Virus record (IMG/VR): IMGVR_UViG_3300025769_000070
Length of the DNA stretch: 64,000 nt
Direction: 5' to 3' (one strand)
Source of the DNA: a virus
Lineage: Duplodnaviria > Heunggongvirae > Uroviricota > Caudoviricetes
In this document: positions 31,601-49,640 of the stretch, in pieces
How positions within the stretch are numbered: position 1 is the stretch's first letter
How the letters are laid out: each line of letters begins with the position of its first letter
Translations under genes and position numbers: made by a program
The notes under the pieces: model-generated
Seen by the model: only the letters and a program-made list of their open reading frames with translations
Databases searched by the model: none
Told to the model about the DNA's origin: nothing

Positions 31601-31716
31601 GGATCGTCTGTAGTGAGTAAATCGAAAGGCTTACATAACTCATTTTTATTATAATTAATATTAAGCCAAGCATCATTAAGTTCGGATAATATTTCTACTC
31701 TTAAGCGTTCAGTCAT
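28633..31716 (-). CDS. terL: terminase large subunit interrupted by an intein
   Basis: Walker A GSRGVGKATK is split after K98 by an insertion starting with Cys. The extein carries Walker B DIIADE and the nuclease motifs GVDPA and IAMDAQGGG. Total 1027 aa, about 669 aa extein plus 358 aa intein. Confidence 0.85.
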   Translation of the reverse strand: MTERLRVEILSELNDAWLNINYNKNELCKPFDLLTTDDPEEFYKTFTWLMIQPEYFCFLCKNILNIDLVPFQGLMLEEIWKRKFPMLIGSRGVGKATKCTEPLLTDQGWVRMGDITYNHKVYSRNGKLCNIVGIYPQGKKQVCRLKFADGREIDCCEDHLWVMKKQQKEVTVSTKDIINDGVRFYSSPGKWAYKYKLPLTEPIQYEEKQLPLDPYILGCLLGDGCMTTRTPKIASDDAFIIEQFRTRLDGFEIKKDSSNNNYTIVDIDKQLNKRFSKKGKSFYKRDGNRLVSIIEGMKLNVGCKDKFIPEEYKTSSVEQRMEIVRGLLDTDGSCNKNGAIEFTNSCEKLVKDLIEVLRSLGISCQLKIDDRSGSYSEIRGKQIPRNPYYRVFINTSKQVFKLPRKVERLKNNQTSREKYTSLISAEYVNEFEEMQCISVDSPDHTYITKDYIVTHNTFLLSLYSLMRALIMPERKVVVIGAAFRQSKFLHEYMETIWKKSPILRDLCDSNSGPRRDVDMCRMIINSSTVTAIPVGDGQKIRGLRANDIIADEFASQSRDIFENVIAGFGAVSSSPSEGVKLAAAKNLAKQRGYDLSLLQENFANEDFGNQIVLSGTAYYDFNHFSTYWKRWRSIINSKGDPVKLKETFGEEKVPDSFNWKDYSVIRMPFELIPKGFMDDAQVARSKATVHNGIYLMEFSAVFCTDSAGFFKRSLIEACTGSEQKPIKLPSGDLYFDPSLKGQIDKQYIIGVDPASEVDNFSIVVLEVNSDHRRIAHVWTTTRKEYNERLKRGLTEEGDFYAYCARRIRDLMGAFPTIHIAMDAQGGGIAVAEALHDPVRLLPGELPIWPVIDEDKEKDTDDEQGLHILELCQFAKYDWLSEANHGLRKDLEDKVLLFPRFDPITIGLSIEQDKASNRTYDTLEDCVMEIEALKDELCLIEIRQTPTGRDQWNTPEVKTGVGKKDRLRKDRYSALLMANMAARQARNARIQDSYEIYGGFASVPDSNKKTEAVFLGPNWYTEKMNGVY
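30349..31422 (-). mobile_element. intein with LAGLIDADG homing endonuclease domain inside terL
   Basis: Starts with Cys after the P-loop and ends ...IVTHN followed by Thr. Two LAGLIDADG motifs (LGCLLGDGC and GLLDTDGS). Classic P-loop insertion site for terminase inteins. Confidence 0.75.
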
Positions 31717-36479: not shown

Positions 36480-36639
36480 GTATAGCCTTCGCTTTCATTA
36501 AACATGGGTCTGGTATAAGAAGTTCTAAAGTCACGGCTTTCTTTAACTCTTCAGTTTCTTTTATGAGCATAAAAACTCTCCAGGTAAGGGTATAATCTAT
36601 TATATCCAATTTCTTCTCCAAAAGGTTAATACACCAAAA

Positions 36640-37077
36640 ATGAATTATTTACAAATAGCACTATCGGGAAAAGCGGGAGCGGGAAAATTCGCCAAAGTCT
36701 CAAAAGAAGATTATGGGATGCTGATTCGCTACTCATGGAACTACAGAGATGGTTATGCAATTACTAAGATTAACCGTAAAGAAGTGCGAATGCATCGACT
36801 CGTATTAGGGGTTGAAGATCCCGAAATACTAGTAGACCATAAGGATAGAGATCGACTCAATAACCAAAGGACAAATCTCCGGACATTTACACATACCCAG
36901 AACTCTAATAATAGAACTACCTCTCGTTATATTATAGCTTTTGGCGAGAAGCAGACTGTGGGCGAGTGGGCGGTAGACCCAAGATGCGGATGCTCCTATA
37001 ATGTTTTATTAAAGAGACTGGATAAGGAAATTGATCCAGAGATTGCTATATTGGCTCCTGATGATTCAGGTTCTTAG
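36640..37077 (+). CDS. HNH homing endonuclease
   Basis: HRLV...VDHKDRDRLNNQRTNLR is an HNH_3-type motif. Sits at the boundary between the late and early modules. Confidence 0.7.
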   Translation: MNYLQIALSGKAGAGKFAKVSKEDYGMLIRYSWNYRDGYAITKINRKEVRMHRLVLGVEDPEILVDHKDRDRLNNQRTNLRTFTHTQNSNNRTTSRYIIAFGEKQTVGEWAVDPRCGCSYNVLLKRLDKEIDPEIAILAPDDSGS

Positions 37078-37288
37078 CGGGGTAGTAAGGGTGAGACAAT
37101 TTGGAGAGTGGTTTGGCGAATTTTGTTTGAACCCCCCCGGCCAACAGATTCCTACTACTCCCGAACAAATTACAAGATAAAACCCCCTGTCCTGTCCCCC
37201 TAAGTGTCCTGTCCGAAAATTCAAAAGAATTGAAAATTGATAAACCCTTTGGTAGTAACGACTTAGGTAAAAACCGAAAATTTACCTC

Positions 37289-37316
37289 TTGATAACAAGA
37301 ATCGCCAGCCTATAAT
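37289..37316 (+). promoter_or_regulatory. sigma70-type promoter (TTGATA-16-TATAAT) at start of early module
   Basis: Near-consensus hexamers with a 16-nt spacer, about 45 nt upstream of the first early gene. Confidence 0.5.
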
Positions 37317-37362
37317 TAGGTGCAAGACGGAAACGACACCAAAAACAAAGGAAAAAAGTAAG

Positions 37363-37587
37363 ATGATCACAGTTTGCCTCAATGATGGTCATGTAGTGTA
37401 CGAATTCAACACAGTCACTGAATTCGTCGATGCGTTCCCTGATGGTCTGGACCAGGACAATCTCGACCAGGGCTGTTATGTCAACTGTTCTATCCGTCAG
37501 GCTCAGGAAATAGCTTGGGAGCGAGAAGACCGGAAACGTCGATACAATACCAAGTTGCCATTCGTTGGTCAGCGTTGTCGAGACTAG
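37363..37587 (+). CDS. small early protein, paralog A
   Basis: 74 aa, about 88% identical to the 37995-38219 product (MI(T/K)VCL(N/K)DGHVVYEFNT...). Preceded by a GGA-rich leader. Confidence 0.55.
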   Translation: MITVCLNDGHVVYEFNTVTEFVDAFPDGLDQDNLDQGCYVNCSIRQAQEIAWEREDRKRRYNTKLPFVGQRCRD

Positions 37588-37662
37588 GCTTGACGTTGCT
37601 TGCCAGGTCTGATACAATCGGGCCTGGCTGTTTCCCACTGTCTGATCTCAAGGAATGTTTGA

Positions 37663-37899
37663 ATGCGAAAATCAGTATACCAACTGTCAGCAGGTGATGT
37701 TGTTCGCTGCTTCAATGGTACTGGTGATCAGGTTGTCAGTTGTACGGATATCGTACAACATAACAAGAAGAAGCGAATACTTGTTCTAGTGAACAAGAAG
37801 ACAGGGGTAAGGCGGCGTGTGGTATGGGGCTACTATACAAAGGTCTCCATGCAGCCCATCATTCCAAGTACTGCACCTGCGATCAGTATACGAAAGTGA
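37663..37899 (+). CDS. hypothetical small early protein
   Basis: 78-aa ORF with an AGGA SD; followed by palindrome GCCACTAGTGGC and leader element copy 1. Confidence 0.45.
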   Translation: MRKSVYQLSAGDVVRCFNGTGDQVVSCTDIVQHNKKKRILVLVNKKTGVRRRVVWGYYTKVSMQPIIPSTAPAISIRK

Positions 37900-37911
37900 G
37901 CCACTAGTGGC

Positions 37912-37971
37912 ACCGGCGGAAGCCGAGTCGTCTCACTCACCGCAGGTGTGAGTGAGCGAGACGCAACGGAA
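37912..37971 (+). repeat. conserved intergenic stem-loop/leader element, copy 1
   Basis: ACCGGCGGAAGCCGA-GTCGTCTCACTCAC-CGCAGGT-GTGAGTGAGCGAGAC-GCAACGGAA. Inverted repeat of 8 bp or more, followed by GGA motifs and an ATG about 25 nt downstream. Confidence 0.8.
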
Positions 37972-37994
37972 TAAAATCAACGGAGAATCGAGCG

Positions 37995-38219
37995 ATGATC
38001 AAGGTTTGCCTAAAAGATGGTCATGTAGTGTACGAATTCAACACCATCCCCGAATTTGTCGATGCATTCCCTGATGGCCTAGACCAGGAGAATCTGAACC
38101 AGGGCTGTTACGTGAACTGCACTATCCGTCAGGCTCAAGAGATTGCCTGGGAGCGTGAGGACAGGAAACGTCGATACAATACCAAGCTCCCATTCGTTGG
38201 TCAACGTTGCCGGGACTAG
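37995..38219 (+). CDS. small early protein, paralog B
   Basis: 74 aa, paralog of the 37363-37587 product. Confidence 0.55.
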   Translation: MIKVCLKDGHVVYEFNTIPEFVDAFPDGLDQENLNQGCYVNCTIRQAQEIAWEREDRKRRYNTKLPFVGQRCRD

Positions 38220-38275
38220 GGGCTAGGCTACGGGTTGCAACTTCCGCTTTCTTTTATTCAGGATGGAGTTCTAAA

Positions 38276-38500
38276 ATGAAGCCAATCACTCAGCGACCAA
38301 TCCCAGAGGGTTACACTACTGAATGGGATAACACTATCTGGAATGTGGGTATTGTTTTCCTGTGGTCAGATATTTTCGACGATTATTTGCAATGCGGTCG
38401 AATCACTGTGAAGCCCGGAGATACTTTGGCCGAAGCGTTCGAACGTGAAATGAATGAACCAATGTGGACAGAATTTGAAGTTTTCTTCGTCAACGAATAG
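38276..38500 (+). CDS. hypothetical small early protein
   Basis: ORF 38207-38500; probable start MKPITQRP with a GGATGGAG SD. Confidence 0.45.
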   Translation: MKPITQRPIPEGYTTEWDNTIWNVGIVFLWSDIFDDYLQCGRITVKPGDTLAEAFEREMNEPMWTEFEVFFVNE

Positions 38501-38505
38501 ACAGG

Positions 38506-38706
38506 ATGGAACCAGTGGACCCACGTATCACATATATGGCTATTTTCAATGCCATGTCAATCGGTGACTTCACAATGGCGAGAGTTCACGCCACCGACCT
38601 GAAAGAATGGTTGGACAAAGGTGGATTCTATCCCGACACCTATACAAAAGTGGAGGTGGACGCCTATCTCGCGAGCGTATTGAGACGTACAGTAGGGTAT
38701 GAATGA
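38506..38706 (+). CDS. hypothetical small early protein
   Basis: 66-aa ORF in the operon. Confidence 0.4.
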   Translation: MEPVDPRITYMAIFNAMSIGDFTMARVHATDLKEWLDKGGFYPDTYTKVEVDAYLASVLRRTVGYE

Positions 38707-38721
38707 TCAAAAGCGAAGGCG

Positions 38722-38790
38722 GTCGTGTTGCCCGTTCTTCGCCGGTCGTCCCACTCACAGCAGGTGTGAGTGAGCGGGACGCAACGGAAA
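38722..38790 (+). repeat. conserved intergenic stem-loop/leader element, copy 2
   Basis: ...GGTCGTCCCACTCACAGCAGGTGTGAGTGAGCGGGACGCAACGGAAAC.... ACGGAG then ATG follow downstream. Confidence 0.8.
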
Positions 38791-38814
38791 CAAAACACTA
38801 AACGGAGAACGGCG

Positions 38815-39027
38815 ATGCTTGACATCAAATTGACATCATACGAAAAGCGAATCATCGGCACACTGACCGATGAAGGGCACACACTTTATGTAACCGGAGA
38901 CGGTTGGATCTTTGAAGAATCTTGCGGAGATAAGCACACTTTCCAGTCTTTTCGAAAGTTCTTTGAGTTCTGCGAGTATCGTGAGTCGCAATTGCTGCTC
39001 GTGCGAGAAATGCAGGAGACTTTTTAA
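38815..39027 (+). CDS. hypothetical small early protein
   Basis: MLDIKLTSYEK...; the start follows element copy 2 and a GGAGAACGG SD. Confidence 0.45.
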   Translation: MLDIKLTSYEKRIIGTLTDEGHTLYVTGDGWIFEESCGDKHTFQSFRKFFEFCEYRESQLLLVREMQETF

Positions 39028-39057
39028 ATAACGCCCTTTAGACGGAGATTGAAGAGA

Positions 39058-39236
39058 TGAACGGACCAGAAGCAATCGAGTTTTTCGTAGCGAACGCAAA
39101 TGTCTACAACGAATGGTCAGAAGCTGCTATGTGGCAGCATGTCAGCCACGTCGTTAGAAAATCCCACAAAGAACCAAATCGGGTCTGGACAGTGGAAGAA
39201 CTATCCGCTATGATAGCACAAGCGGAGAACCAGTAA
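39058..39236 (+). CDS. hypothetical small protein (59 aa, below ORF-track cutoff)
   Basis: ATG preceded by GGAGATTGAAGAG. Reads MNGPEAIEFFVANANVYNEW.... Confidence 0.35.
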
Positions 39237-39251
39237 CCCATATGCGAGGTA

Positions 39252-39321
39252 CGGGTGTGTTACCCGTGCTTCGCGGGTCGTCTCACTCACCGCAGGTGTG
39301 AGTGAGCGAGACGCAACGGAA
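39252..39321 (+). repeat. conserved intergenic stem-loop/leader element, copy 3
   Basis: ...GGGTCGTCTCACTCACCGCAGGTGTGAGTGAGCGAGACGCAACGGAAAAC.... Followed by AAGGACGGAAACG then ATG. Confidence 0.8.
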
Positions 39322-39349
39322 AACAACTCAAAACAAAAGGACGGAAACG

Positions 39350-39478
39350 ATGGACGATTTCGATGATGTGACGTGTGAAGAGTTTTTCGACGACGAAAAG
39401 TATTACCGCAGTGTGCCAGATGCTGAGTTTGAGCAATCGGTTCCCTTCTCGTATCAGGTATCACTTTTCTTCGAATAA
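39350..39478 (+). CDS. hypothetical acidic mini-protein (42 aa)
   Basis: MDDFDDVTCEEFFDDEKYY...; the ATG follows element copy 3 and an AAGGACGGAAACG SD. Confidence 0.3.
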   Translation: MDDFDDVTCEEFFDDEKYYRSVPDAEFEQSVPFSYQVSLFFE

Positions 39479-39482
39479 CCGC

Positions 39483-39510
39483 TTGACATTCTCTGTCAAT
39501 GGGCTACAAT
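39483..39510 (+). promoter_or_regulatory. sigma70-type promoter (TTGACA-16-TACAAT)
   Basis: Consensus -35 box and 16-nt spacer. Confidence 0.5.
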
Positions 39511-39551
39511 CCACTTCTCAAACGGAAACTGTCTTTTAGAAGGAAAACACT

Positions 39552-39848
39552 ATGTCGCACACAATCTTCGAAAACGCTTTTGGTAAGATTTCCCATGAAG
39601 TTCGAAGGGATTATGTTATCTCTGATGAAGAACTGTTCGGGATGGTCAGCCGGGACTTCTACAAATCCTTGAACAATCCAGAAGTGACGGGAACGAAATC
39701 AATGCTCAAAAGTCTGGCAAAAGAACAAGGCCAGGTTGTGGAAGAAACACCAGAAGAAATTGCGATTCGCGAAGCAATGGAACGTGAGCAGAGGATTCTT
39801 GCCCATATCAGACGGGTTCAAATCGAATTGCAATGCTGTGAAGATTGA
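39552..39848 (+). CDS. hypothetical small early protein
   Basis: 98-aa ORF preceded by a GAAGGAAAACACT SD. Confidence 0.45.
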   Translation: MSHTIFENAFGKISHEVRRDYVISDEELFGMVSRDFYKSLNNPEVTGTKSMLKSLAKEQGQVVEETPEEIAIREAMEREQRILAHIRRVQIELQCCED

Positions 39849-39901
39849 AGATTGAAGATTGAAGAGGACGGAAACAATCCCCAGAAAAGAAGGAAAGAAC
39901 G

Positions 39902-40066
39902 ATGAAAGACGCTGAACGCCTGATGATCATCCGTGCCCTGGCATTAAATTGTCGGGACAACGCAAAGAATGGGGCAGATGAGGACAATCGTCCACTTCTG
40001 GACCTGATCCATGAGTTAGCGTTTCAGATGGATGTTGAGTACACAAATTTTTCGCTGGGGGAGTAA
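39902..40066 (+). CDS. hypothetical small protein (54 aa)
   Basis: ATG preceded by GAAGGAAAGAACG. Reads MKDAERLMIIRAL.... Confidence 0.35.
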   Translation: MKDAERLMIIRALALNCRDNAKNGADEDNRPLLDLIHELAFQMDVEYTNFSLGE

Positions 40067-40165
40067 TGCTAATAAACGCAATCCAAGACGCGACCCCCTA
40101 CGTAATTGGAACAGGTCTGTTCCTGTTCATAATGACACTTCTAGAAAAGAATGGAAGACTTTAGG

Positions 40166-40345
40166 ATGCTAGTACTGTCAAGAAAAAAAGACGAAAAGAT
40201 CACAATTCAGATTCCCGGAAAACCGGATATCGAAATCATGATCATCGAAACGGGCATCAAGACGCGGGTGGGGATTAAAGCTCCACAAGAATACCAGATC
40301 GTCAGAAACGAACTGATTGGAACGTCAAGAGGGCTTCCAAAATAG
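40166..40345 (+). CDS. csrA: carbon storage regulator CsrA homologue
   Basis: MLVLSRKKDEKITIQ...IMIIETGIKTRVGIKAPQEYQIVRNELI aligns to the CsrA/RsmA consensus MLILTRRxGE...V..GNQVRIGI.APKEV.V.REEI, with a short insertion. Confidence 0.8.
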   Translation: MLVLSRKKDEKITIQIPGKPDIEIMIIETGIKTRVGIKAPQEYQIVRNELIGTSRGLPK

Positions 40346-40437
40346 GTTTCTTGATATCGGTTCTTTGATATGGGGCGGGTGGGGAAATTGTCCCTGCCTG
40401 CCTTTATCTTTTACCAGAAAAATAGCCTGTCTGTTTT

Positions 40438-40497
40438 ACCGGCGGAAGCCGAGTCGTCTCACTCACCGCAGGTGTGAGTGAGCGAGACGCAGCGGAA
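40438..40497 (+). repeat. conserved intergenic stem-loop/leader element, copy 4
   Basis: ACCGGCGGAAGCCGAGTCGTCTCACTCACCGCAGGTGTGAGTGAGCGAGACGCAGCGGAA; about 60 nt near-identical to copy 1. Confidence 0.8.
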
Positions 40498-40616
40498 AAC
40501 AAGACACAAAGGAAAACCAAAAAGTCAGAATTTTCAGCTTGCAAGCCACAATGATTGTGTTACAATGCTCTCTCAATGGAACGGCGACCAACTTTTTCTT
40601 TCATGGGGATGAACGA

Positions 40617-41879
40617 ATGACTAAATGGATCAAGATGCACAATGATGGTGAATTCGACGTTATTACCGCAATTGGTATGCTGGGGGCGTCGGTGAAGATG
40701 GGTGAAGATCCCATTGGTCTCTATGGTTCTGGTATCAAGTACGCTATGGCTCAGGCTTTGCGTATGGGTATCTCGCTGAAGATTTCCGACAAGGGAAATC
40801 TGTACACTCTCACGTCCTTCGAAACTGAGTTTCGGGGGCGACAATTTCAAAGTGTCGGTCTCAAGACAAAGACCGGAAAGATCCATAAAACTGGAATCAC
40901 TACTGATTTCGGTAAAGAAGACTGGACAGATATTTGGTTCATCTTCCGCGAATTTTATTCGAACTGCCTTGATGAAGGCGGATTTCTGGAAATCGTGGAC
41001 GGTATACAAACCAGCGAGTCAGGCGTTGACGTTTTTATCCCGTATACTCCATTCAAGGAAATCGTTGATAACCTGAGTGATTACTTTTGTCCTAAAGATT
41101 TTAAGCTAAAAGTCGGCACGGGACGAGTATTCAAAAAGGGAGTATGGGTTGGGAATATGTCGGTCGATACAGGCTTGGACTTCCAGTCTGATTACATCGA
41201 AATTACTGAAACCCGAACGCTCAACCAATATTGTGCTTGGAGGCGTTTAGAAGGCATTATCGAAAGCTACGCAGAAAAAGAACATTTGGTCGAACTGCTC
41301 AAGCATGAAGAATGTTGGACAGAAATGCCGAACCTATGGTTGTGCGGCGAGAAATGCGAGGAGCATTTGCACGCAGCCCTAGTCGAAGTATATGGCAAAG
41401 ATTATATGATCTGTCCAAATGTGGATTGGATTATCAAAGATGCCATAGAAGTCTACGGAAGGAATCCGGTAGTATTTCCATCGGAATGGAAATTGCCAAC
41501 ATCAAAAATTCAAACGATGCAAGATCTGGCGAATAGTATCATCTTCCGCGATGCGACAGAAGCAGAGCAAAAAGTCATTGATAAAGGAATGAAGGCTTTA
41601 GCATGGATGGACGATGTTCCTAATCCTTTTGATTCCCTTTATAGTGTCAGGATAAAAGACATCAAAGTCAGAATCCTGAAGACAGACGAGAATTGTGGCG
41701 GATTGGCTAAACAAGGTTCCACCGAAATTGCCATCAATTCATCAGTGGTGAGCGGAGATTTTAAGAAGTTTTTGCAAACCCTGATGCACGAGTGCGTTCA
41801 CGCCATCACTGGCGAACAAGACTATACCAGAGGATTCGCTAGCTTCATGGAAAGAGCTTTAGTGTCCTTCTCTGTTTGA
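40617..41879 (+). CDS. hypothetical protein with C-terminal HExxH (metallopeptidase-like) motif
   Basis: ORF 40539-41879; probable start MTKWIKMH with a GGGGA SD. LMHECVHAITGEQDY. A G-rich GLYGSGIKYA motif is also present. Confidence 0.45.
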   Translation: MTKWIKMHNDGEFDVITAIGMLGASVKMGEDPIGLYGSGIKYAMAQALRMGISLKISDKGNLYTLTSFETEFRGRQFQSVGLKTKTGKIHKTGITTDFGKEDWTDIWFIFREFYSNCLDEGGFLEIVDGIQTSESGVDVFIPYTPFKEIVDNLSDYFCPKDFKLKVGTGRVFKKGVWVGNMSVDTGLDFQSDYIEITETRTLNQYCAWRRLEGIIESYAEKEHLVELLKHEECWTEMPNLWLCGEKCEEHLHAALVEVYGKDYMICPNVDWIIKDAIEVYGRNPVVFPSEWKLPTSKIQTMQDLANSIIFRDATEAEQKVIDKGMKALAWMDDVPNPFDSLYSVRIKDIKVRILKTDENCGGLAKQGSTEIAINSSVVSGDFKKFLQTLMHECVHAITGEQDYTRGFASFMERALVSFSV

Positions 41880-42112
41880 TTCCATCCCCGTGGATTGAGT
41901 GGCGGGCATGATGCCCGCTGCTCAATATTTTGACTGGAGGCGAAATGTTCTGCATGTATCTTTCACCGGCAGGAAAACAATTCAATAGAATTGTAAGGGT
42001 TACTGGCGAAGTCGCCGTATGTATTGCGACAGGAAAGAAACGGTTCATTGACCCGATGTTTCTGAGACCAACAGTTTCCGCAGATTGGCAACTCTGAGAT
42101 AAAGGGCTTGAA

Positions 42113-42134
42113 GAGGCCGCTACGGAGCGGCCTC
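42113..42134 (+). terminator. GC-rich hairpin (member of repeated GGCCGCTACGGAGC family), terminator-like
   Basis: GAGGCCGCT-ACGG-AGCGGCCTC, a 9-bp stem. No clean U tract follows. Confidence 0.35.
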
Positions 42135-42205
42135 TGAGGGCCGCTCTGATGTAGACTAACCTGTACGGATGATCGAACAATCTTTGATAATTAAGCTCAA
42201 TTAAG

Positions 42206-42233
42206 TTGCAATGGTCTGCCGATATGATATACT
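42206..42233 (+). promoter_or_regulatory. sigma70-type promoter (TTGCAA-16-TATACT), TTGCAATGG family
   Basis: Shares the TTGCAATGG...GTGACATGAG architecture with the promoters at 44071 and 45353. Confidence 0.45.
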
Positions 42234-42296
42234 AGTGACATGAGACGCGGGGGCAATCAGCCCAACACGGGGTTTTTTCTTCAAAGGAGAATTGTG

Positions 42297-43193
42297 ATGC
42301 AGAATGTTCTTTCAAGTGACGTTGCTGAAACAGTCAAAAAAGAGTTCGATTTCCAGGTCAACAAGTTCCCCTTGTCTGGTCCCGATGGAATGAAGACTCC
42401 CTGTTATGGTCTGTTCCGGTCTGACAATGCGTCTTTCGTTGGTTCTTGCAACAATGCCAAAAGTCGGAACTATATTCCACACCAGACTGACGATGTCATT
42501 GCTCTGGTTGAAGCGTCTTCCACGCTGTTTGATGGTGAAGTCGATGTCACCTGTTTCTTCAATCAGGGGCACTATGTGTCCGTTCAACCAACAATGGACA
42601 AACGCAAAGCCGTGTTCGGCCAAAAGGATAACGTCTTCCCGCGAATCATTATTAACGCGGGATATGATGGTCAGGCTTTCAAAGCGAACATGGGCTACTA
42701 TCGTGACGTTTGCAAGAATCTGAGTATCATGAGAATGGTCAAAGGTACGACTGTTTCGATTCGTCACATGAGCAACCTACGCTCCGAGATGGATGAATTG
42801 ATTGAAACGTTCGGCGTTCTTGGCGAATCGTGGGAAGCTCTGGGGCAAAGAATTGATGCTCTTGAACAAACCAAAGTCTCTTTGGTAGGATTCCTGGAAG
42901 ATGTTTTTGGACCAGTCCCAGAAGAAACGGGACGGGGAAAAACGGTCGCGGAAAATCGTATTGAGAAGATTGTTGGTCGTCTTCTCAACGAACGATTCAA
43001 AACGGGACGACCATTGAGTGAAGGCGTGGCCCCGGAATATTCTGGATGGGAGCTTGCAAATGCTGTGCAGGGATATACTCAACATGATAAGCCCCGGCAT
43101 GGTAATCCTACTGAGTTTCAACGTGCTATCATGGCAATGAATGATCAACACGTCAATAAAGCATTCGAATTGCTTTTATCAATGAGTGCTTAG
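42297..43193 (+). CDS. DUF932-like (phage/plasmid-like) protein
   Basis: ORF 42240-43193; probable start MQNVLSS with an AAGGAGA SD. Reads ...CYGLFRSDN...HQTDDVIALVEA...IIINAGYDGQAFKANMGYYRDVCKNL..., recalled DUF932 signatures. Confidence 0.5.
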   Translation: MQNVLSSDVAETVKKEFDFQVNKFPLSGPDGMKTPCYGLFRSDNASFVGSCNNAKSRNYIPHQTDDVIALVEASSTLFDGEVDVTCFFNQGHYVSVQPTMDKRKAVFGQKDNVFPRIIINAGYDGQAFKANMGYYRDVCKNLSIMRMVKGTTVSIRHMSNLRSEMDELIETFGVLGESWEALGQRIDALEQTKVSLVGFLEDVFGPVPEETGRGKTVAENRIEKIVGRLLNERFKTGRPLSEGVAPEYSGWELANAVQGYTQHDKPRHGNPTEFQRAIMAMNDQHVNKAFELLLSMSA

Positions 43194-43205
43194 AATTGGT
43201 AAGGT

Positions 43206-43240
43206 GGGGGGATGGCGGAAACCCGCCATTCCCCTATCCC
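43206..43240 (+). repeat. palindromic direct repeat flanking HNH gene (left copy)
   Basis: GGGGGATGGCGGAAACCCGCCATTCCCCTAT. Confidence 0.6.
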
Positions 43241-43854
43241 AAAGTCTGAAGTATGTATTGGGCAAAACTTCTTAATTCATCGGGGCTAGCGTCAGATTTC
43301 ATTCGATTGGCTTTATGGCTCAGAATTTGGACATTGCCAATAATATAACCTTTTGTGTTGTCTATTCTGTCAATTGTTGCAGATTCTGATACAATTCGAC
43401 TAGTACCACCATAAGACAGTTCAATTCCCAATATCGGGCAGAACGGAACGTAGATGGAATCTAGATGCTCGCGAGTCAGATTAAACTCCCATCCTTTTTC
43501 TTTTGCTCGCTTTTTTGCGTTTTTCAACCTACCCGCCCATTTGTCATCTTTTTTTCTTTGGGCAATTTGAGCCTTGTTCTTCTCATAATATTCTCTTTGA
43601 TACTTGTCATAAGCTTCTTTTGAGGCATAGCCGTTACGCTGCCAAGCTTCTAACATGGAACGTCTCTTCTTTTGATAAGTTACACGGTTTTCTTTAGCCC
43701 TTTCTTTAGTGTCCAGCAGTTCACAATCATAACAGATAGTCTTTTGATAGTCGTAAAATTCTCCGGTTTTGACCTTGTTAACAATCCTTGGTCGTTGTAT
43801 AATCCTGAAATCTGAGAGGGGTTTATCGACTTGACATTTTCTACACTTTTTCAT
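43234..43854 (-). CDS. HNH-family endonuclease (free-standing, opposite strand to its neighbours)
   Basis: N-terminal CRKC...CYDC zinc finger. C-terminal ATIDRIDNTKGYIIGNVQILSHKANRMK is an HNH_3-like motif. Lone minus-strand gene in the plus-strand module. Confidence 0.6.
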   Translation of the reverse strand: MKKCRKCQVDKPLSDFRIIQRPRIVNKVKTGEFYDYQKTICYDCELLDTKERAKENRVTYQKKRRSMLEAWQRNGYASKEAYDKYQREYYEKNKAQIAQRKKDDKWAGRLKNAKKRAKEKGWEFNLTREHLDSIYVPFCPILGIELSYGGTSRIVSESATIDRIDNTKGYIIGNVQILSHKANRMKSDASPDELRSFAQYILQTLG

Positions 43855-43922
43855 TGTAAATACCCTTGAAAAGAAAATTTGTTCTCAAGGTTATATACAC
43901 CCTTTTCGATTCAAAAAGGACA

Positions 43923-43957
43923 AACGGGGATGGCGGATTTACGCCATTCCCCTATGC
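43923..43957 (+). repeat. palindromic direct repeat flanking HNH gene (right copy)
   Basis: GGGGATGGCGGATTTACGCCATTCCCCTAT. Confidence 0.6.
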
Positions 43958-44070
43958 GAGAGTATATCCTCCATCTTATAAATGGTAGAAAGATTAATTG
44001 GTTCATGTGCGTTCGATTCGCACCTCTCGCACTGACACTGAGTTTTTTCAAAAACTCTAAAGATAACGCT

Positions 44071-44098
44071 TGCAATGGTCGATAATTACAGTACAATG
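44071..44098 (+). promoter_or_regulatory. sigma70-type promoter (TTGCAA-16-TACAAT), TTGCAATGG family
   Basis: TTGCAATGGTCGATAATTACAGTACAATGGTGACATAAAG, near-identical to the promoter at 45353. Confidence 0.5.
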
Positions 44099-44170
44099 GT
44101 GACATAAAGCGATCAGCTTGACCTACAACCAGGCCATCATCTTGGCCGAATCAATCCTGGAGGCTTTGAA

Positions 44171-44458
44171 ATGAAAGACATTATGGTTGGCGGATTCTTT
44201 GTTCTTTTTATTATTGGGGCATTGTTTATTGGTGCAACTAATGTACCACTAGAGCAAGAACCACCAACAGAGCTTCAACAACTACAAACTGAGGTGCGGT
44301 CTTTACGCAACGACCTGAACCAGTTAATCCTTGCATTGCCCGAAGATCCGACCATCATTGTAGATGGTCAAGTGGTAGACGAACATTTTGACTGGAACGT
44401 GTTTCATAACGTGCCGGGGAAAACAGATGATCAAAAAACCAGCGTTTTACCAGATTGA
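44171..44458 (+). CDS. small membrane-anchored protein
   Basis: N-terminal TM helix GGFFVLFIIGALFIGA; Q/L-rich. Confidence 0.45.
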   Translation: MKDIMVGGFFVLFIIGALFIGATNVPLEQEPPTELQQLQTEVRSLRNDLNQLILALPEDPTIIVDGQVVDEHFDWNVFHNVPGKTDDQKTSVLPD

Positions 44459-44837
44459 CCAGTGGAACATGCTTTCACTACTGGAACCGTTTCAAAAGGT
44501 GGACGTATACCGGAACTTGACTTCTGGTCTGTGGAGTGTCAGGCAGAATGGGATTGTTATACTACACGCTGAGTGTATAGCAATTTACAACCCCGAATTT
44601 ATCGTCAGTCAAAAGGGAAGGGCGAGGGTAATTCGGGAACAAAAGAAATACATCCATGCTTATGTTCGGGGCTTTCCTACATTTTTATCTGGGAAAAGGA
44701 CAGGGCCAGTTAATCCAACGGTTTTGACTTATAATCCCTACATTCACGAGAGTTTTGTGGACGAACGGGGGAATCCGGTATATAATGCTGGCATGTGTGT
44801 GTTGCGTCCGGATCATAAAGTTGAGGTAGTCAGATGA
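44427..44837 (+). CDS. hypothetical protein
   Basis: ORF 44388-44837; likely start MIKKPAFYQ with a GGGGAAAACAG SD. Confidence 0.4.
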   Translation: MIKKPAFYQIDQWNMLSLLEPFQKVDVYRNLTSGLWSVRQNGIVILHAECIAIYNPEFIVSQKGRARVIREQKKYIHAYVRGFPTFLSGKRTGPVNPTVLTYNPYIHESFVDERGNPVYNAGMCVLRPDHKVEVVR

Positions 44838-45003
44838 ATGAATATTGGGTAATCATGAAGGCGGCAGGTATTCAACCCTCTTACGTGTATGGTCCATTCA
44901 CATATCAAGAGGCCAGAAAAGAGTATGACCGGCGAACTGATCTGTACGAACAAAACAACCGGGAATTCACAATTCGATTGACAAAGACCGAAATTCTGGC
45001 GTA
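44836..45003 (+). CDS. hypothetical mini-protein (55 aa)
   Basis: ATGA start/stop overlap with the upstream gene. Reads MNEYWVIMKAAGIQPSYVYGPFTYQEARKEY.... Confidence 0.3.
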
Positions 45004-45266
45004 AGCCAGTTGGTATGAGAAAGCTCCTCATACTGTAAAGTGGTAAACGGTGAAGCACGGTCCACTATAATAAAACGGGGTTTCACCATACAATATGGAG
45101 TAGGGGCCACTATTGATAACTGTGGCAGTCAGACCGCAATATCTGACCGGGTTTGCTTTCTTCTTTTCTAGGGAGATTTAAGCACAGAAGAGTAATTAAC
45201 TTCTGAATACCCATGCGGGTTCAATTCCCGCCTACTCCTGCCTTATTCTTTTACTAGGCCGCTACG

Positions 45267-45288
45267 GAGCAGCCGCTGGCGGCTGCTC
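45267..45288 (+). terminator. GC-rich hairpin (GGCCGCTACGGAGCAGCCGCTGGCGGCTGCTC family)
   Basis: GAGCAGCCG-CTGG-CGGCTGCTC, a 9-bp stem. Confidence 0.35.
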
Positions 45289-45352
45289 TGATGCGTGTAT
45301 TCCAGTGAACGTATGTCTTTCTGTTCTTTTTCGGTTTTCTCAAGGTTGGTGC

Positions 45353-45380
45353 TTGCAATGGACGATAACTATAGTATAAT
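45353..45380 (+). promoter_or_regulatory. sigma70-type promoter (TTGCAA-16-TATAAT), TTGCAATGG family
   Basis: TTGCAATGGACGATAACTATAGTATAATGGTGACATAAGAG. Confidence 0.5.
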
Positions 45381-45461
45381 GGTGACATAAGAGACAACGG
45401 GAAAAAAAGCAGAATGGACATTATGACTCAGCAAGCAATTCCATTTGGGGGATGATTCGGC

Positions 45462-45758
45462 ATGAAAAAATATCAACTACGCAATCAGTTAGACTCATCC
45501 AAAACTAGGATACGTGAACTGGAAGCTCAATTAGTTCATCAGCATCATTTTGCTGATGCTAACATCGACAAATGTTCTACTGAGAAATTGTTGGGTTCTG
45601 CTGTCATCCTGGAATTAACTGCTTTAGGTGGCAGAACTATTGTAGCACCTATTGCTATAAGTGACGGGCTATCTCTAGAGACAATTGAAGCATTGAAGGC
45701 CGACATATGCCGATCCTACAAGAATCGTGTTGAGTTCAAACCAAAGGGGATGGAATGA
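45462..45758 (+). CDS. hypothetical protein
   Basis: 98-aa ORF with a GGGGGATGATTCGGC SD region. Confidence 0.45.
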   Translation: MKKYQLRNQLDSSKTRIRELEAQLVHQHHFADANIDKCSTEKLLGSAVILELTALGGRTIVAPIAISDGLSLETIEALKADICRSYKNRVEFKPKGME

Positions 45759-45988
45759 GATCGAAGCCTGTTCCTCACCACACTTTTCCCGGTGGGTATC
45801 CAATGTTCTACTACGTGAAGTCAGATGATGGTCACCTACACAGTTGCCCATCATGTGTCAATCAGAATCGTGTGGGTAGGAATGTGACGAAAGTTGAAGG
45901 TCACATTAACTATGAGGACGACAGTCTAACTTGTGATGTTTGTGAAAAGCGGATAGAATCCGCCTATGGGAGGGAGAATGAAAACTGA
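45755..45988 (+). CDS. zinc-ribbon small protein
   Basis: CPSC...CDVC cysteine pairs. ATGA overlap with the upstream gene. Confidence 0.45.
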   Translation: MRSKPVPHHTFPGGYPMFYYVKSDDGHLHSCPSCVNQNRVGRNVTKVEGHINYEDDSLTCDVCEKRIESAYGRENEN

Positions 45989-46199
45989 AGTTTGGTATCA
46001 ATGGAAAGAATTGATCGAAGGGCGATTGGTTGATGCCGAGTCTAATCCAATGCATAGCGAGACTCCTATAGGCGATTTTCTATTTGATTCACCGGAAGAT
46101 GCGAGGGATTACCTTGACGAATCCTTTGAAGACGAAGTCAAACCGGACTGGATTCTTGTTCGCACAACTTATGATCCCATAGGGGGTTACAATGGCTAA
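45978..46199 (+). CDS. hypothetical acidic protein
   Basis: ORF 45966-46199; probable start MKTEVW after a GGGAGGGAGA SD. Confidence 0.4.
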   Translation: MKTEVWYQWKELIEGRLVDAESNPMHSETPIGDFLFDSPEDARDYLDESFEDEVKPDWILVRTTYDPIGGYNG

Positions 46200-46242
46200 T
46201 AAAAAGAAAAGGCAGGTTTTTAACTAAAATCGCCAAAATACC

Positions 46243-46270
46243 TTGAAATCTCTCTGAGACATGGTACAAT
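46243..46270 (+). promoter_or_regulatory. sigma70-type promoter (TTGAAA-16-TACAAT)
   Basis: Hexamers with a 16-nt spacer. Confidence 0.4.
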
Positions 46271-46567
46271 TGACACAGCGGTGATCTAGTGATGACGATT
46301 ACAATATGATCACCAATGTTGGCTTGACCGCCAGTGTTTGACCGGCAACACAAAAAGTCCGTCTGAGATGTTTCCCAGTTCTTTAAGCTAGACGTTAAAC
46401 GATAGAATGTGGCGTAGAATGTTATAATAGTGTTCACCAGGTTCTGAATCTTTTACAACGTCAGAGAAAGATAAATGATCCGGCGTGTCAACGAAAGTTG
46501 TTAAATTGTTCCACTGCGGTGAGTTCAAACACGTAATCTATCAGTTTTGGTCGTTTACTGAGGTAAC

Positions 46568-46652
46568 AACTAAACGGCCACAGGGGATTTGGTGTATTTG
46601 GTAACACGCCGCTATTTAAGCGAGGCACATCGGTTCGATTCCGATTTTAGTT
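46568..46652 (+). other. tRNA-like element (class-II-like, non-canonical anticodon arm)
   Basis: Perfect 7-bp acceptor pairing AACTAAA/TTTAGTT. T-arm ATCGG-TTCGATT-CCGAT. D-arm GCCA...TGGT with GG. The anticodon arm has only a GTGT/ACAC stem with an 8-nt loop. Confidence 0.3.
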
Positions 46653-46673
46653 TGGAACGCCTGAAATTGAGAA

Positions 46674-46699
46674 GTGAGGTTCGAATCCTTACAATCCCA
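46674..46699 (+). other. tRNA 3'-half-like fragment (T-arm GGTTCGAATCC + acceptor-like tail)
   Basis: TGAGG-TTCGAAT-CCTTA then CAATCCCA. No matching 5' half at tRNA distance. Confidence 0.25.
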
Positions 46700-46718
46700 T
46701 TTGGTATCCTGATTTTGC

Positions 46719-46746
46719 TTGACTGTTCGTGTCAACGTGGTACAAT
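46719..46746 (+). promoter_or_regulatory. sigma70-type promoter (TTGACT-16-TACAAT)
   Basis: Upstream of the gene at 46811. Confidence 0.45.
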
Positions 46747-46810
46747 TCGCATATGAAAAACGTGCTCATCACAGCACTGATTTTGGGCTTCCTTTTGGAG
46801 TGGTTTAGAG

Positions 46811-47086
46811 ATGAAGATTAGCAGAGCAAAAGCGTTAAAACTTATTAAGGCTTCTAACGGGAAGACTTTTGGAGTTGGTTTCATTAAAAAGAACGGGGAG
46901 CAAAGGAATATGAATGCCCGTCTGGGTGTTAAAAAGGGAGTTATTGGTGTGGGGATGAAATACGATCCATCAGAACATGATTTGATCACCGCTTTCGATA
47001 TGAAGAAAGACGGTTTTCGTATGATCAACCTTAACACTCTTTTCAGACTTTCAACCAAAAAGAAAACTTACGAAATCGTAGATTAG
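46811..47086 (+). CDS. hypothetical basic protein
   Basis: 91-aa ORF with a GGAGTGG SD. Confidence 0.45.
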   Translation: MKISRAKALKLIKASNGKTFGVGFIKKNGEQRNMNARLGVKKGVIGVGMKYDPSEHDLITAFDMKKDGFRMINLNTLFRLSTKKKTYEIVD

Positions 47087-47091
47087 GGGGG

Positions 47092-47316
47092 ATGGTGGAA
47101 GAAGAACTTGAAGAAATCAGAGAAAGAATAAAAAGGCAGCACCTTAACTATCTATGGCAAGAAGATCACATGATGGAAATCATCATGCAAATTTGTCGAG
47201 AACAGGATGATGATCGAGAAGCTGTTAAAAATGTTATCAAGTCTACTATCTCTTTGGCATATTCGACAGGAGCCGCTGACGCCACTGAGATGACTATTGA
47301 ATTACTCAATAAATAG
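47092..47316 (+). CDS. hypothetical acidic protein
   Basis: 74-aa ORF with an AGGGGGG SD. Confidence 0.45.
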   Translation: MVEEELEEIRERIKRQHLNYLWQEDHMMEIIMQICREQDDDREAVKNVIKSTISLAYSTGAADATEMTIELLNK

Positions 47317-47328
47317 GATCAGATTGAA

Positions 47329-47362
47329 GCCTCAGATTGCATCAGTAATCTGGGGCTTTTTT
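47329..47362 (+). terminator. rho-independent terminator
   Basis: CAGATTGCATCAGTAATCTG hairpin followed by GGGGCTTTTTTG. Confidence 0.4.
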
Positions 47363-47381
47363 GTATTCATAGGGTGCAACA

Positions 47382-47411
47382 GAGCAGCCGCTGGCGGCTG
47401 CTCGTTTGTGT
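47382..47411 (+). terminator. GC hairpin family member with U-rich tail
   Basis: GAGCAGCCGCTGGCGGCTGCTC followed by GTTTGTGT. Confidence 0.45.
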
Positions 47412-47464
47412 ATCTGCCTATACGGGTGAATTCGGCTATTTTTCACTTTTTAGACTTAAGACTA

Positions 47465-47492
47465 TTGCAATCAACTGTCGATATATTATAAT
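47465..47492 (+). promoter_or_regulatory. sigma70-type promoter (TTGCAA-16-TATAAT)
   Basis: TTGCAATCAACTGTCGATATATTATAATAGGGACATGAAG. Confidence 0.5.
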
Positions 47493-47538
47493 AGGGACAT
47501 GAAGGGGAGAGAACGAAACACTAAACGGGGGAGAGAGA

Positions 47539-47724
47539 ATGAAGTTTAGAGTGACAATGAAGAATCCTGATTGTGTGTCGCAGGCTATCGACGACGCCAT
47601 TGCTGATGATCCTCATCAGGAAGACGATATCAGATCAGCTATCTCTAGGTGGTTCAAATACGAGGATTATTTGGAAGTAGAGATTGACACTTCTGTCGGA
47701 ACTTGCGTGGTGATCAAACCATGA
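47539..47724 (+). CDS. hypothetical small protein
   Basis: 61-aa ORF with a GGGGGAGAGAGA SD. Confidence 0.4.
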   Translation: MKFRVTMKNPDCVSQAIDDAIADDPHQEDDIRSAISRWFKYEDYLEVEIDTSVGTCVVIKP

Positions 47725-47888
47725 ACAATCAAAGAGCTATACTTGAACAGTTGCGGGATGCGTTAGCGATTGTGTCTGAAGCGTATATCGAATGTCCACA
47801 TTGTGTTTGTGGGCCGGTATTGCAAGCCAAACAGAGTCTTGAGGATGCTGTCCATAGACTAGAAAAAAACATTGAAAGTTCAAACTAG
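47703..47888 (+). CDS. hypothetical small protein (CxxC...CxC)
   Basis: 61-aa ORF overlapping the upstream gene by 22 nt. Confidence 0.4.
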   Translation: MRGDQTMNNQRAILEQLRDALAIVSEAYIECPHCVCGPVLQAKQSLEDAVHRLEKNIESSN

Positions 47889-47921
47889 TAAAAAGGAAGG
47901 CAGATTAACGCAAGAAAACAC

Positions 47922-47949
47922 TTGACACGGCCAGTAACTAAGTTATAAT
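47922..47949 (+). promoter_or_regulatory. sigma70-type promoter (TTGACA-16-TATAAT)
   Basis: Perfect consensus hexamers. Confidence 0.55.
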
Positions 47950-47978
47950 ACGGAAGTCAACTCACACGGGGGAAAACG

Positions 47979-48722
47979 ATGATTACATTTTCAGAAGCGA
48001 ACAGTAAACTCAAAAAATTGCAAGCCGTTACTGGTCGAACTGTTTTCAGCTTCGACCTATTGTCGGGGCACACTTGTCCCGGTGCGAAGGATTGTTTCAC
48101 CAAAGTTGTTTATGATTGGCTGACAGATACTTATTCGCTGTTCGATGGTCCTGATCAGGAGTTTCGTTGTTACGCTGCAAGCCAAGAGCAACAATATACA
48201 GGCGTTTACAATAAGCGTCTCGAAAACTGGACTATCCTGGAAAGAATGTCCAGTCCGAACATAATGGCAGCAGCTATTGAAGCTGCTATGCCTAGTCACG
48301 CGGCGACTATTCGGATTCATTCAGGCGGCGACTTCTTTAGTATGTCTTATTTCAAGGCATGGATACTTGTTGCCAAACGCAACCCGCTAAAAAGATTCTA
48401 TGCGTACACTAAGTTTCTGCCAGCATGGGTTAAATTTATGGGGATTATTCCCGCAAATTTAATTCTGACGGCATCGCGTGGTGGGCGTTATGATCATCTG
48501 ATCGACAAACACGGTCTGAGAGAAGCTAAGGTGATCTATGACGAGTCTGAGGCTAACGGTCTGGCGATTGATGTTGACGATTCTATTGCCGCCGATCCTG
48601 ATCGGAGAAATGAGGATTTCTGTCTGCTGATCCACGGACAAGGGCAAGCGGGTTCTGATCAGGCAAAGATTCACAGTGAACTAACACGGGCAAAACGAAA
48701 CGCCAAACTAATCTCTAACTAG
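47979..48722 (+). CDS. hypothetical protein (GHTCPGAKDC motif)
   Basis: 247-aa ORF with a GGGGGAAAACG SD. Confidence 0.5.
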   Translation: MITFSEANSKLKKLQAVTGRTVFSFDLLSGHTCPGAKDCFTKVVYDWLTDTYSLFDGPDQEFRCYAASQEQQYTGVYNKRLENWTILERMSSPNIMAAAIEAAMPSHAATIRIHSGGDFFSMSYFKAWILVAKRNPLKRFYAYTKFLPAWVKFMGIIPANLILTASRGGRYDHLIDKHGLREAKVIYDESEANGLAIDVDDSIAADPDRRNEDFCLLIHGQGQAGSDQAKIHSELTRAKRNAKLISN

Positions 48723-49464: not shown

Positions 49465-49556
49465 AAACACTCCTGATCATTGGATTTTGTGTAGGATTCA
49501 TGCTATCCTTCGTGTCTGATGAGTAGTTCAAGTGGGGGAGAAATCCCCCACTATTT

Positions 49557-49640
49557 GCGGGCGTGATGTAATTGGCAGCCATATTCCGCTTAAACCGGAA
49601 TGGGAACAATCCCGTGCAGGTTCGAATCCTGTCGCCCGTA
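49557..49640 (+). tRNA. tRNA-Leu(UAA), class II
   Basis: Acceptor GCGGGCG/CGCCCGT (G1-U72 wobble). 3-bp D stem ATG/CAT with GG in the loop. Anticodon stem TTCCG/CGGAA with loop CTTAAAC, giving anticodon UAA. Long variable arm GGGAACAATCCC. T-arm GCAGG-TTCGAAT-CCTGT. Discriminator A. Confidence 0.7.

Follow-up and report, generated by a model that had tools for sequence, protein, structure and literature searches.

A divergent phage-encoded CsrA-family gene, a covarying GGA-containing leader cassette and a possible link between the two

The 64,000-nt stretch of viral DNA analysed here (IMG/VR record IMGVR_UViG_3300025769_000070, hereafter the window) comes from an uncultured marine/estuarine phage and carries a csrA homologue of 59 codons. 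Around the gene lie leaders in which GGA motifs come in pairs, one member of each pair falling in the Shine-Dalgarno (SD) region, and copies of a structured repeat family that we call D2; coordinates are collected in Table 1, and names of the L001 type denote contigs of metagenomic relatives. We hypothesize that a functional CsrA-type dimer binds the early leaders of the phage itself, together with its own ribosome-binding site, and thereby tunes or shuts off early translation. Judged from the sequence, this reading is tentative, and we hold it to be a little short of an even prospect.

The csrA product, MLVLSRKKDEKITIQIPGKPDIEIMIIETGIKTRVGIKAPQEYQIVRNELIGTSRGLPK, scores 49.6 bits with Pfam CsrA (PF02599; gathering cutoff 27, E 3.9e-13), the match running over positions 1-48 of the 53 in the profile, and it also matches PHROG 9500, "CsrA-like regulator". 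The CsrA/RsmA signature that the original prediction placed at 40166-40345 is therefore borne out with exact coordinates, and the gene is phage-encoded as claimed, the window having phage gene content. Solved CsrA, RsmE and RsmN/RsmF chains give weak sequence matches (E 0.007-0.5). In an alignment that took in E. coli, B. subtilis, Pseudomonas-type and Planctomycete-like CsrA as well as metagenomic homologues, M1, L2, L4, R6, E10, G36, A39, P40, R47 and E49 are invariant. The RNA-binding surface of strands β1 and β5 consists of L2, L4, R6, R/K7 and a critical arginine, E. coli R44, on which RNA binding reportedly depends more than on any other residue. R47 of the phage protein aligns with that R44 and its K7 is as in B. 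subtilis; the RNA-binding residues, whose loss would have spoken against the prediction, are intact. CsrA folds as a five-stranded β protomer within an interdigitated homodimer; for the phage protein, which may share this fold, superposition of the predicted model on 1vpz_A gives 2.3 Å (49 residues). The scores against the NCBIfam csrA equivalog models TIGR00202 / NF002469 stay below the cutoffs (35.9 vs 70.1 bits and 34.1 vs 73), which is why we regard the protein as a divergent member of the CsrA family and not as an orthologue or equivalog of the cellular regulator. It has a four-residue insertion (PGKP) following the first predicted β-strand and is without a C-terminal tail.

For csrA, pairwise dN/dS across five lineages ranges from 0.11 to 0.32, and dS (~1.3-2.0) has reached saturation wherever the window is compared with another lineage; we conclude from these values that purifying selection maintains the gene, which occurs in at least six related metagenomic lineages. 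Length changes are confined to the segment between the third and fourth predicted β-strands. The identical protein sequence is present in at least 8 independent metagenome contigs; this protein and relatives at 92, 78, 68 and 58% identity were found only in estuarine/marine metagenome contigs (JGI, ENA, Tara, Logan), Delaware Bay samples among the sources. All share the same synteny: small genes, a micro open reading frame (micro-ORF), csrA, a terminator, sometimes an inserted helix-turn-helix (HTH) gene, the gene of a 420-aa protein, and DUF932. Taking the ORF for a remnant without function or in decay, with a functionally meaningless Pfam match, is an idea that draws on its shortness (59 aa), the missing C-terminal tail and the sub-equivalog scores, but it is effectively refuted by the dN/dS values at saturated dS, by the retention of every signature residue, by the recurrence of the identical protein and by the conservation of synteny, of the coupled upstream micro-ORF and of the terminator.

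The stop codon of the micro-ORF sits one base ahead of the csrA ATG, which suggests that csrA is probably translationally coupled to it. Its peptide is kept, with third-position changes, in L001, L090, L091, L118 and L005, and a comparable hairpin with a T-run follows csrA in the same five contigs. The ribosome-binding region of csrA, AAUGGAAGACUUUAGGAUG, lies inside the micro-ORF and holds two GGA motifs 11 nt apart. As side observations, the micro-ORF (…PYVIGTGLFLFIMTL…) stands directly upstream of csrA in every lineage and was mostly overlooked by the gene callers of the public records, and a tandem direct repeat, TTCTTGATATCGG / TTCTTTGATATGG, spans 40346-40371 from the csrA stop to the terminator and is partly kept in relatives as TATCGGTTCTTTGATATCGGG.

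Relatives outside these metagenomes are distant. Among GenBank phages, megablast of 38000-44000 gave no match, tblastn of CsrA gave one match only, at 48% identity, and the terminase is ~25% identical to those of cultured phages; no annotated relative is therefore usable. In IMG/VR, 178 stretches encode CsrA relatives, none of them above 54% identity to the phage CsrA, and no relative of the 420-aa neighbour protein was found. The closest cellular CsrAs retrieved are those of Planctomycetota (45-55% identity). Since the peptide patterns used biased this retrieval, it gives only a weak hint at Planctomycetota as host or donor.

D2 is a family of 78-nt repeats with four copies in the window, each made up of a variable hairpin 1, a hairpin 2 and a single-stranded GCA(A/G)CGGAA tail. 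In copies 1-3 an SD sequence (ACGGAG or AAGGACGGA) and an ATG follow 12-17 nt past the repeat. Hairpin 2 has an 11-bp stem, usually with a conserved A·C mismatch, an upper stem of 3-4 bp and a loop of 11-13 nt. A covariance model of hairpin 2 and tail finds only these four copies in the 64 kb, all on the plus strand at 72-75 bits, as against ~17 bits on the other strand, and 23 distinct variants in the relatives. Compensatory changes affect 5 of the 11 stem pairs; 91% of the cells pair, compared with 27-53% when the partner is slid, and the observed covariation score was equalled in 0 of 500 shuffles. CGGA in the tail is conserved in 22-23 of the 23 variants while the positions flanking it vary. 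Over 36500-48000, no Rfam 15 family matches D2 at gathering thresholds or at E ≤ 5, and an 18-mer of D2 gave 25 matches in IMG/VR, all by chance, none being confirmed by the covariance model. On this evidence D2 is a covariation-supported RNA motif, so far undescribed. Every csrA+ relative has a D2 copy in the post-csrA position, where hairpin 1 takes the form of two distinct stems, CGGC/GCCG and, in L001-type relatives, GGCC/GGCC (GGCC[AAGGAA]GGCC), each with a GGA in its loop. Three further identities for D2 were rejected: an intrinsic terminator, as no U-tract follows hairpin 2; a hairpin-type or single-subunit-RNA polymerase promoter, which the stem covariation and the 11-13 nt loop do not suit; and an HK022 put-like antitermination site, as copy 4 comes after and not before the terminator.

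The claim of the original prediction that repeated leaders with paired GGA motifs surround csrA stands: in six leaders an upstream GGA at -27 to -34 is matched by a GGA of the SD region at -10 to -13, 14-22 nt away. Spacings of 10-63 nt between GGA sites are reported for CsrA repression, and at sequence level all six leaders show the layout of a CsrA-repressed leader, with at least two GGA in that range and one over the SD. The hairpin-less leaders at 37323, 39517 and 39864 have in common ACGGAAAC, an A-rich spacer and an AAGGA SD. The motif ACGGAAAC was observed 5 times against 1.1 expected, always on the plus strand and inside 2.5 kb, and ACGGA 12 times in the early region against ~1.6 expected (Poisson p ~1e-7). 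This enrichment is limited to the local early cluster, for ACGGA is not enriched across the entire window (79 observed vs 71 expected). An upstream GGA (-60 to -16) occurs in 10/12 early, 9/19 middle and 6/33 late leaders (Fisher p = 8e-4, early vs rest). Short hairpin loops with GGA have 7 of their 13 plus-strand matches in 37.7-44 kb, a clustering that is only suggestive, several being coding and the region more G+C-rich. A count of "A(N)GGA" per leader across phages was dropped, as it counted AAGGA twice and inflated csrA- phages with an AAGGA SD.

Table 1. Positions of csrA, the leader cassettes and neighbouring features in the window.
Feature	Position	Strand	Remarks
csrA homologue	40166..40345	+	59 aa + stop; final cistron of putative early cluster
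D2 copy 1	37906..37983	+	hairpin 1 CGGC[GGAA]GCCG, hairpin 2, GCAACGGAA, SD ACGGAG, ATG 37995; 74.5 bits
D2 copy 2	38724..38801	+	long hairpin 1 without loop GGA, hairpin 2, GCAACGGAA, ACGGAG, ATG 38815; 74.5 bits
D2 copy 3	39256..39333	+	long hairpin 1, hairpin 2, GCAACGGAA, SD AAGGACGGA, ATG 39350; 75.3 bits
D2 copy 4	40432..40509	+	CGGC[GGAA]GCCG, hairpin 2, GCAGCGGAA, AAAGGAAAA; no ORF after; 72.9 bits
Hairpin-less leader	37323..37362	+	ACGGAAAC near predicted 5' end, 21 nt to AAGGA SD, ATG 37363; predicted unstructured
Hairpin-less leader	39517..39551	+	ACGGAAAC, 18 nt to AAGGA SD, ATG 39552; predicted unstructured
Hairpin-less leader	39864..39901	+	GGACGGAAAC, 22 nt to AAGGA SD, ATG 39902; predicted unstructured
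54-aa ORF, first of putatively coupled trio	39902..40066	+	leader GGACGGAAAC then AAGGAAAG; overlaps micro-ORF start (TAATG)
Hydrophobic 32-aa micro-ORF (…PYVIGTGLFLFIMTLLEKNGRL)	40066..40164	+	stop one base ahead of csrA ATG
Intrinsic-terminator-like hairpin + T-rich tract	40372..40415	+	right after csrA; terminator scan; -30.1 kcal/mol, z -3.5
Sigma-70-like promoter, putative early	37289..37316	+	TTGATA-16-TATAAT, 11/12; promoter scan
Sigma-70-like promoter	37590..37618	+	TTGACG-17-TACAAT, 10/12; promoter scan
Sigma-70-like promoter	39483..39510	+	TTGACA-16-TACAAT, 11/12; heads csrA-ending transcription unit; promoter scan
First second-class promoter	40539..40566	+	TTGCAA-16-TAYAAT + conserved GGTGACATAA-like tail; starts unit of 420-aa gene; repeat family D4, promoter scan
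Structured element D3	42108..42152	+	GC(A/T)ACGGAGC, two mutually exclusive hairpins; further copies 45250-45296, 47365-47404

More distant relatives were reached through the 420-aa neighbour protein, which is at least 58% identical in csrA+ relatives and 36-41% identical in the csrA- contigs L211, L212 and L213. The csrA+ contig L210, at 58%, has five D2 copies with many compensatory stem changes and a tail G(A/G)ACGGAAGC. In the three csrA- contigs no csrA was found over 15-21 kb (hmmsearch, six-frame ORFs), nor was the D2 cassette, other hairpin, terminator and promoter cassettes being found at equivalent positions. Since D2 was found in csrA+ relatives only and in 0 of 3 csrA- relatives, csrA and the cassette seem to co-occur inside one clade. 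In L212 (3800-13000) and L213 (1-9000), a TAAACCCTTA…TAAGGGTTTA hairpin, a GC-rich terminator-like hairpin and a TTGACG…TATAAT promoter are repeated in 5-7 copies. With abundant intergenic cassettes in csrA- relatives too, this group of phages as a whole appears to make use of modular regulatory cassettes.

Several observations weigh against the binding of these leaders by the phage CsrA. The comparison of csrA+ and csrA- contigs sets three against three and is confounded with phylogenetic distance; because AUGGAU hairpin loops persist in the csrA- L211, it is suggestive and not decisive. Within the csrA+ clade, an upstream GGA occurs in just 2 of the 6 leaders that precede the 420-aa gene in L210, and L087 has CAGAA in place of CGGAA at its post-csrA D2 copy. 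Homology among the leaders makes the statistics overcount, the effective sample being perhaps two or three; the SD is ACGGAG or AAGGA here, and a GGA is expected in it anyway; and the ACGGA farther upstream might be a standby SD or a duplicate of the SD. Binding by CsrA would fit the anatomy of the leaders, but the motifs are confounded by the GGA-type SD and by leader homology; it is conjectural, as are the titration of host sRNAs and the reprogramming of host regulons that the original prediction also put forward. A high-affinity CsrA site presents GGA in a hairpin loop; in D2 itself, such a loop GGA is found in hairpin 1 of only two of the four window copies (1 and 4). The most conserved part of D2 is hairpin 2, which is no site of the CsrA type and which CsrA binding does not explain; its constraint has another source. 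Copy 4, between the csrA terminator and the next promoter, has no ORF to regulate, and a role as boundary element or relic of recombination suits it no less than one as a regulatory site. Window and L086 are ~97% identical, yet two blocks of small genes that lie between D2 copies have traded places (window 37924-39331 vs L086 7538-9185), with breakpoints inside D2; D2 is therefore also a substrate of homologous recombination, a recombination module. On the side of the protein, it falls short of the equivalog cutoffs, and beside the key arginine H43 is changed to V and E45 to N, so that its specificity could differ. The stronger argument that the leader motifs are more than chance is an evolutionary one: the non-coding CGGA and the stem are conserved where synonymous sites are saturated.

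The same observations can be accommodated if D2 is independent of CsrA and works between cistrons in the processing or stability of RNA, for instance as an RNase III hairpin of the T7 early-region kind, as a hairpin that bars exonucleases or as a 5' stabiliser, and is a recombination module besides, its CGGA being a standby or duplicated SD or part of a nuclease or ribosome site. The strongest constraint would then fall, as it does, on a covarying hairpin stem and not on a CsrA-type loop; the copies lie between cistrons and on the sense strand only; gene cassettes are swapped between the window and L086 with breakpoints within D2; in the csrA- relatives, comparable places are taken by cassettes of hairpin and promoter that are analogous to D2 yet not related to it; ACGGAG is the usual SD of this phage; and the arrangement resembles what is reported of the T4 PeSL regulatory cassettes. 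RNase III sites of the T7 early-region type comprise about two turns of double-stranded RNA, often with an internal loop. Against this, D2 offers only its 11-bp stem (A·C mismatch conserved) topped by an upper stem of 3-4 bp, less than one would expect of a classical site, and it matches no Rfam family; neither so tight a spacing (14-22 nt) nor GGA loops in hairpin 1 would be required by a standby SD. This explanation, compatible with CsrA also binding the tail, we consider a real possibility to which we would give slightly less than even weight.

If the phage CsrA does act on the leaders, we picture its action as follows. A divergent, minimal 59-aa CsrA-family protein would be made late within the early unit, from its final cistron, and its dimer would recognise GGA motifs as cellular CsrA does. 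On accumulating, the dimer would bridge the upstream (A)CGGA and the SD GGA 14-22 nt apart, the ribosome-binding site of csrA being among the targets, and the bridging would occlude or tune ribosome binding. The expected outcome, repression rather than stabilisation, would be that early translation is shut off or re-tuned with a delay and in a self-limiting manner, functionally comparable to what T4 RegA does. Hairpin 2 would serve as an intercistronic boundary or stability element that holds the adjacent CGGA single-stranded, and GGA-containing host mRNAs may be additional targets. A further step would be to see minimal CsrA and mobile, recombining cassette as one self-contained module, in which whichever early gene the cassette precedes comes under phage CsrA. 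We think this rather unlikely; if true, it would be a viral early-translation shut-off circuit derived from a captured bacterial global regulator, with cis element and regulator co-inherited in one clade.

Published ideas on the role of phage CsrA are host-directed, suppression of CRISPR-Cas among them, and the explanations discussed here are not mutually exclusive. The phage CsrA may be a host-directed mimic only, acting on GGA-containing mRNAs or sponge sRNAs of the host (metabolism, motility, CRISPR-Cas defence), with the leader GGA incidental. The hypothesis published for phage RsmA/CsrA is of this kind (PMC8450108, PMC7366521, PMC11879866), and a position in the early cluster would suit a takeover function. 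CsrA relatives are, moreover, common in viral contigs that have no cassette (178 IMG/VR stretches, and no D2 found in IMG/VR), and the closest cellular homologues, Planctomycetota CsrAs at 45-55%, are compatible with capture from a host lineage. It leaves unexplained, however, the near-invariant single-stranded CGGA beside hairpin 2, the GGA loops on two different stems and the restriction of D2 to csrA+ relatives; being compatible with CsrA binding to the phage leaders, it is not exclusive of it. As the whole explanation, we see it as possible though clearly under an even chance. No multi-GGA sponge sRNA of the CsrB/RsmZ type was recognised in the window, where only one tRNA scored over the Rfam threshold; the non-coding 40346-40536 contains three GGA and no recognisable sponge. 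Nor was a FliW-like or other partner identified, Pfam giving zero matches on ten neighbouring small proteins.

Alternatively, the GGA-paired early leaders may be targets of the host CsrA, with the phage protein as a competitor, heterodimer poison or replacement that relieves or takes over control. Early leaders must work before phage CsrA exists, and two of them have ACGGA near the predicted 5' end, where CsrA binding can protect a transcript, as is reported for flhDC of E. coli. The presence of CsrA in phage and host is also correlated (Campa et al., PMC8450108). The formation of mixed dimers is uncertain at 45-55% identity to the nearest cellular CsrA, and we regard this scenario as improbable.

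The wider layout of the window bears on what we call early. Genes lie on the minus strand up to ~36.5 kb (tail fibres, the 1027-aa terminase and homing endonucleases among them) and on the plus strand from 36.6 kb (HNH endonucleases, DNA ligase and tRNA-Leu among them), with a switch in G+C and GC skew at ~36 kb. Between 37.3 and 40.35 kb, ~12 small ORFs without Pfam match stand behind near-consensus sigma-70-like promoters (37289, 37590, 39483), and we infer from this promoter and gene layout only that the cluster is early. Promoters of the form TTGCAA-16-TA(C/T)AAT with a GGTGACATAA-like sequence recur at 40539-40576, 42206-42243, 44070-44107, 45353-45390 and 47465-47500; heading each transcription unit after csrA, they may represent a second temporal class. 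Within the early cluster, a paralogous pair of 74-aa genes (37341-37588 and 37973-38220, 84% nucleotide identity) has a promoter-type leader on one copy and a D2 cassette on the other, and a (GATTGAA) tandem repeat of ~3.5 units (39838-39866) straddles the stop of a 98-aa ORF and the beginning of the leader after it.

D3 is possibly related to the leader cassette. Its hairpin GAGGCCGC-UACGGA-GCGGCCUC puts ACGG in the loop (UACGGA loop at 42112). The consensus is GC(A/T)ACGGAGC…GGCYGCTC TGATG, one hairpin showing A-U/G-C/G·U variation at a single pair, and the element lies ~55-60 nt upstream of TTGCAA-class promoters. Copies in relatives are at 4641 and 8723 of L001 and at 1770, 2500, 3575, 5176 and 6702 of L211; in this csrA- contig, ACGGAG of D3 is replaced by ACGGCG, ACGCAG or ACGAAG.

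Some observations concern other parts of the window. An HNH / endonuclease VII-like gene on the minus strand (43234-43854) interrupts the plus-strand region and is flanked by a 38-nt, hairpin-containing direct repeat (43208-43245 and 43926-43963, 82% identical), which suggests that a mobile endonuclease was inserted and a terminator-like hairpin duplicated in the process. With 1027 aa, the ORF of the terminase large subunit (28633-31716, minus strand) is of unusual length; only its residues ~85-557 are covered by matches to terminase PHROGs, weaker matches being to helicase-loader and primase PHROGs, and it may be an intein or a fusion. One tRNA-Leu(TAA) and two tRNA/tmRNA-like fragments lie at 45215-45231, 46590-46645 and 49556-49641, the fragments being a 17-mer like a tmRNA 3' end (E 0.002) and a sub-threshold tRNA (22.6 bits).

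What makes the locus attractive is that it supplies short, defined RNA ligands: a conserved CGGA beside a covarying hairpin, 14-22 nt from the SD. If leader binding proved true, this would be the first viral CsrA that regulates the messages of the virus itself, and a simple model of a captured global regulator co-evolving with a portable leader cassette. Without binding, D2 would still count as a recombination module and as an RNA motif backed by covariation and so far undescribed, from a phage lineage that has no cultured relatives.

A virus-encoded CsrA is not in itself as unusual as the original prediction had it. csrA was found in 30 of 2517 phage genomes (PMC7366521), phage RsmA/CsrA homologues in GenBank and IMG/VR were catalogued together with an anti-CRISPR hypothesis (PMC8450108), and knock-down of the PTXU04 csrA homologue led to smaller plaques (PMC11879866); PHROG 9500 and the 178 IMG/VR stretches point the same way. 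Phage csrA genes are thus already documented (PHROG 9500; Sobrero & Valverde 2020; Campa 2021) and the window gene is a divergent addition to them. The sole new point is the hypothesised link between a phage CsrA and its own leaders: the published accounts (PMC7366521, PMC8450108, PMC11879866) describe no lineage-specific, covarying GGA leader cassette co-inherited with csrA. Like the reported homologues (F116, DC1, PTXU04_00028, PHROG 9500, the IMG/VR survey), ours is a csrA-family gene on a phage genome, but it has no close relative in GenBank phages (one at 48%) or IMG/VR (<=54%) and comes with such a cassette, GGA conserved.

Bacterial CsrA, RsmA and RsmE (E. coli CsrA, P. aeruginosa RsmA 1vpz, P. 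fluorescens RsmE 2jpp) belong to the same Pfam family. The phage N-terminus MLVLSRK matches MLILTRR, the GxxAP motif, the key Arg (R47 = E. coli R44) and the Glu are present, and the putative phage targets share the classical layout of two GGA sites with one over the SD. The phage-borne protein differs in being only 25-42% identical to the three aligned reference proteins, in its PGKP insertion, in having no C-terminal tail and in the exchanges at H43 and E45. RsmN/RsmF of P. aeruginosa (4k59, 4kji) are its best PDB sequence matches (E 0.007-0.009): both have a C-terminal IVR(N/D)EL, no long C-terminal helix or tail, and extra residues at a similar point of the N-terminal half. RsmN inserts a full α-helix there whereas the phage protein has only four extra residues, and the match covers residues 21-53 only.

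T4 RegA, a small phage RNA-binding translational repressor of early mRNAs including its own message, is an analogue in function only: fold and family are unrelated, its recognition sequence is not GGA-based, and repression by the phage CsrA is a conjecture. The T4 PeSL cassettes and the RNase III sites of the T7 early region are likewise repeated intergenic stem-loops flanking small early genes, and D2, like PeSL, is tied to gene-cassette shuffling (window vs L086). PeSL contains a promoter, in contrast to D2, within which there is no sigma-70-like promoter and whose copies 1-3 abut SD and ATG. Compared with the T7 sites, the D2 stem is shorter than typical RNase III substrates, and D2 carries a conserved, single-stranded CGGA.

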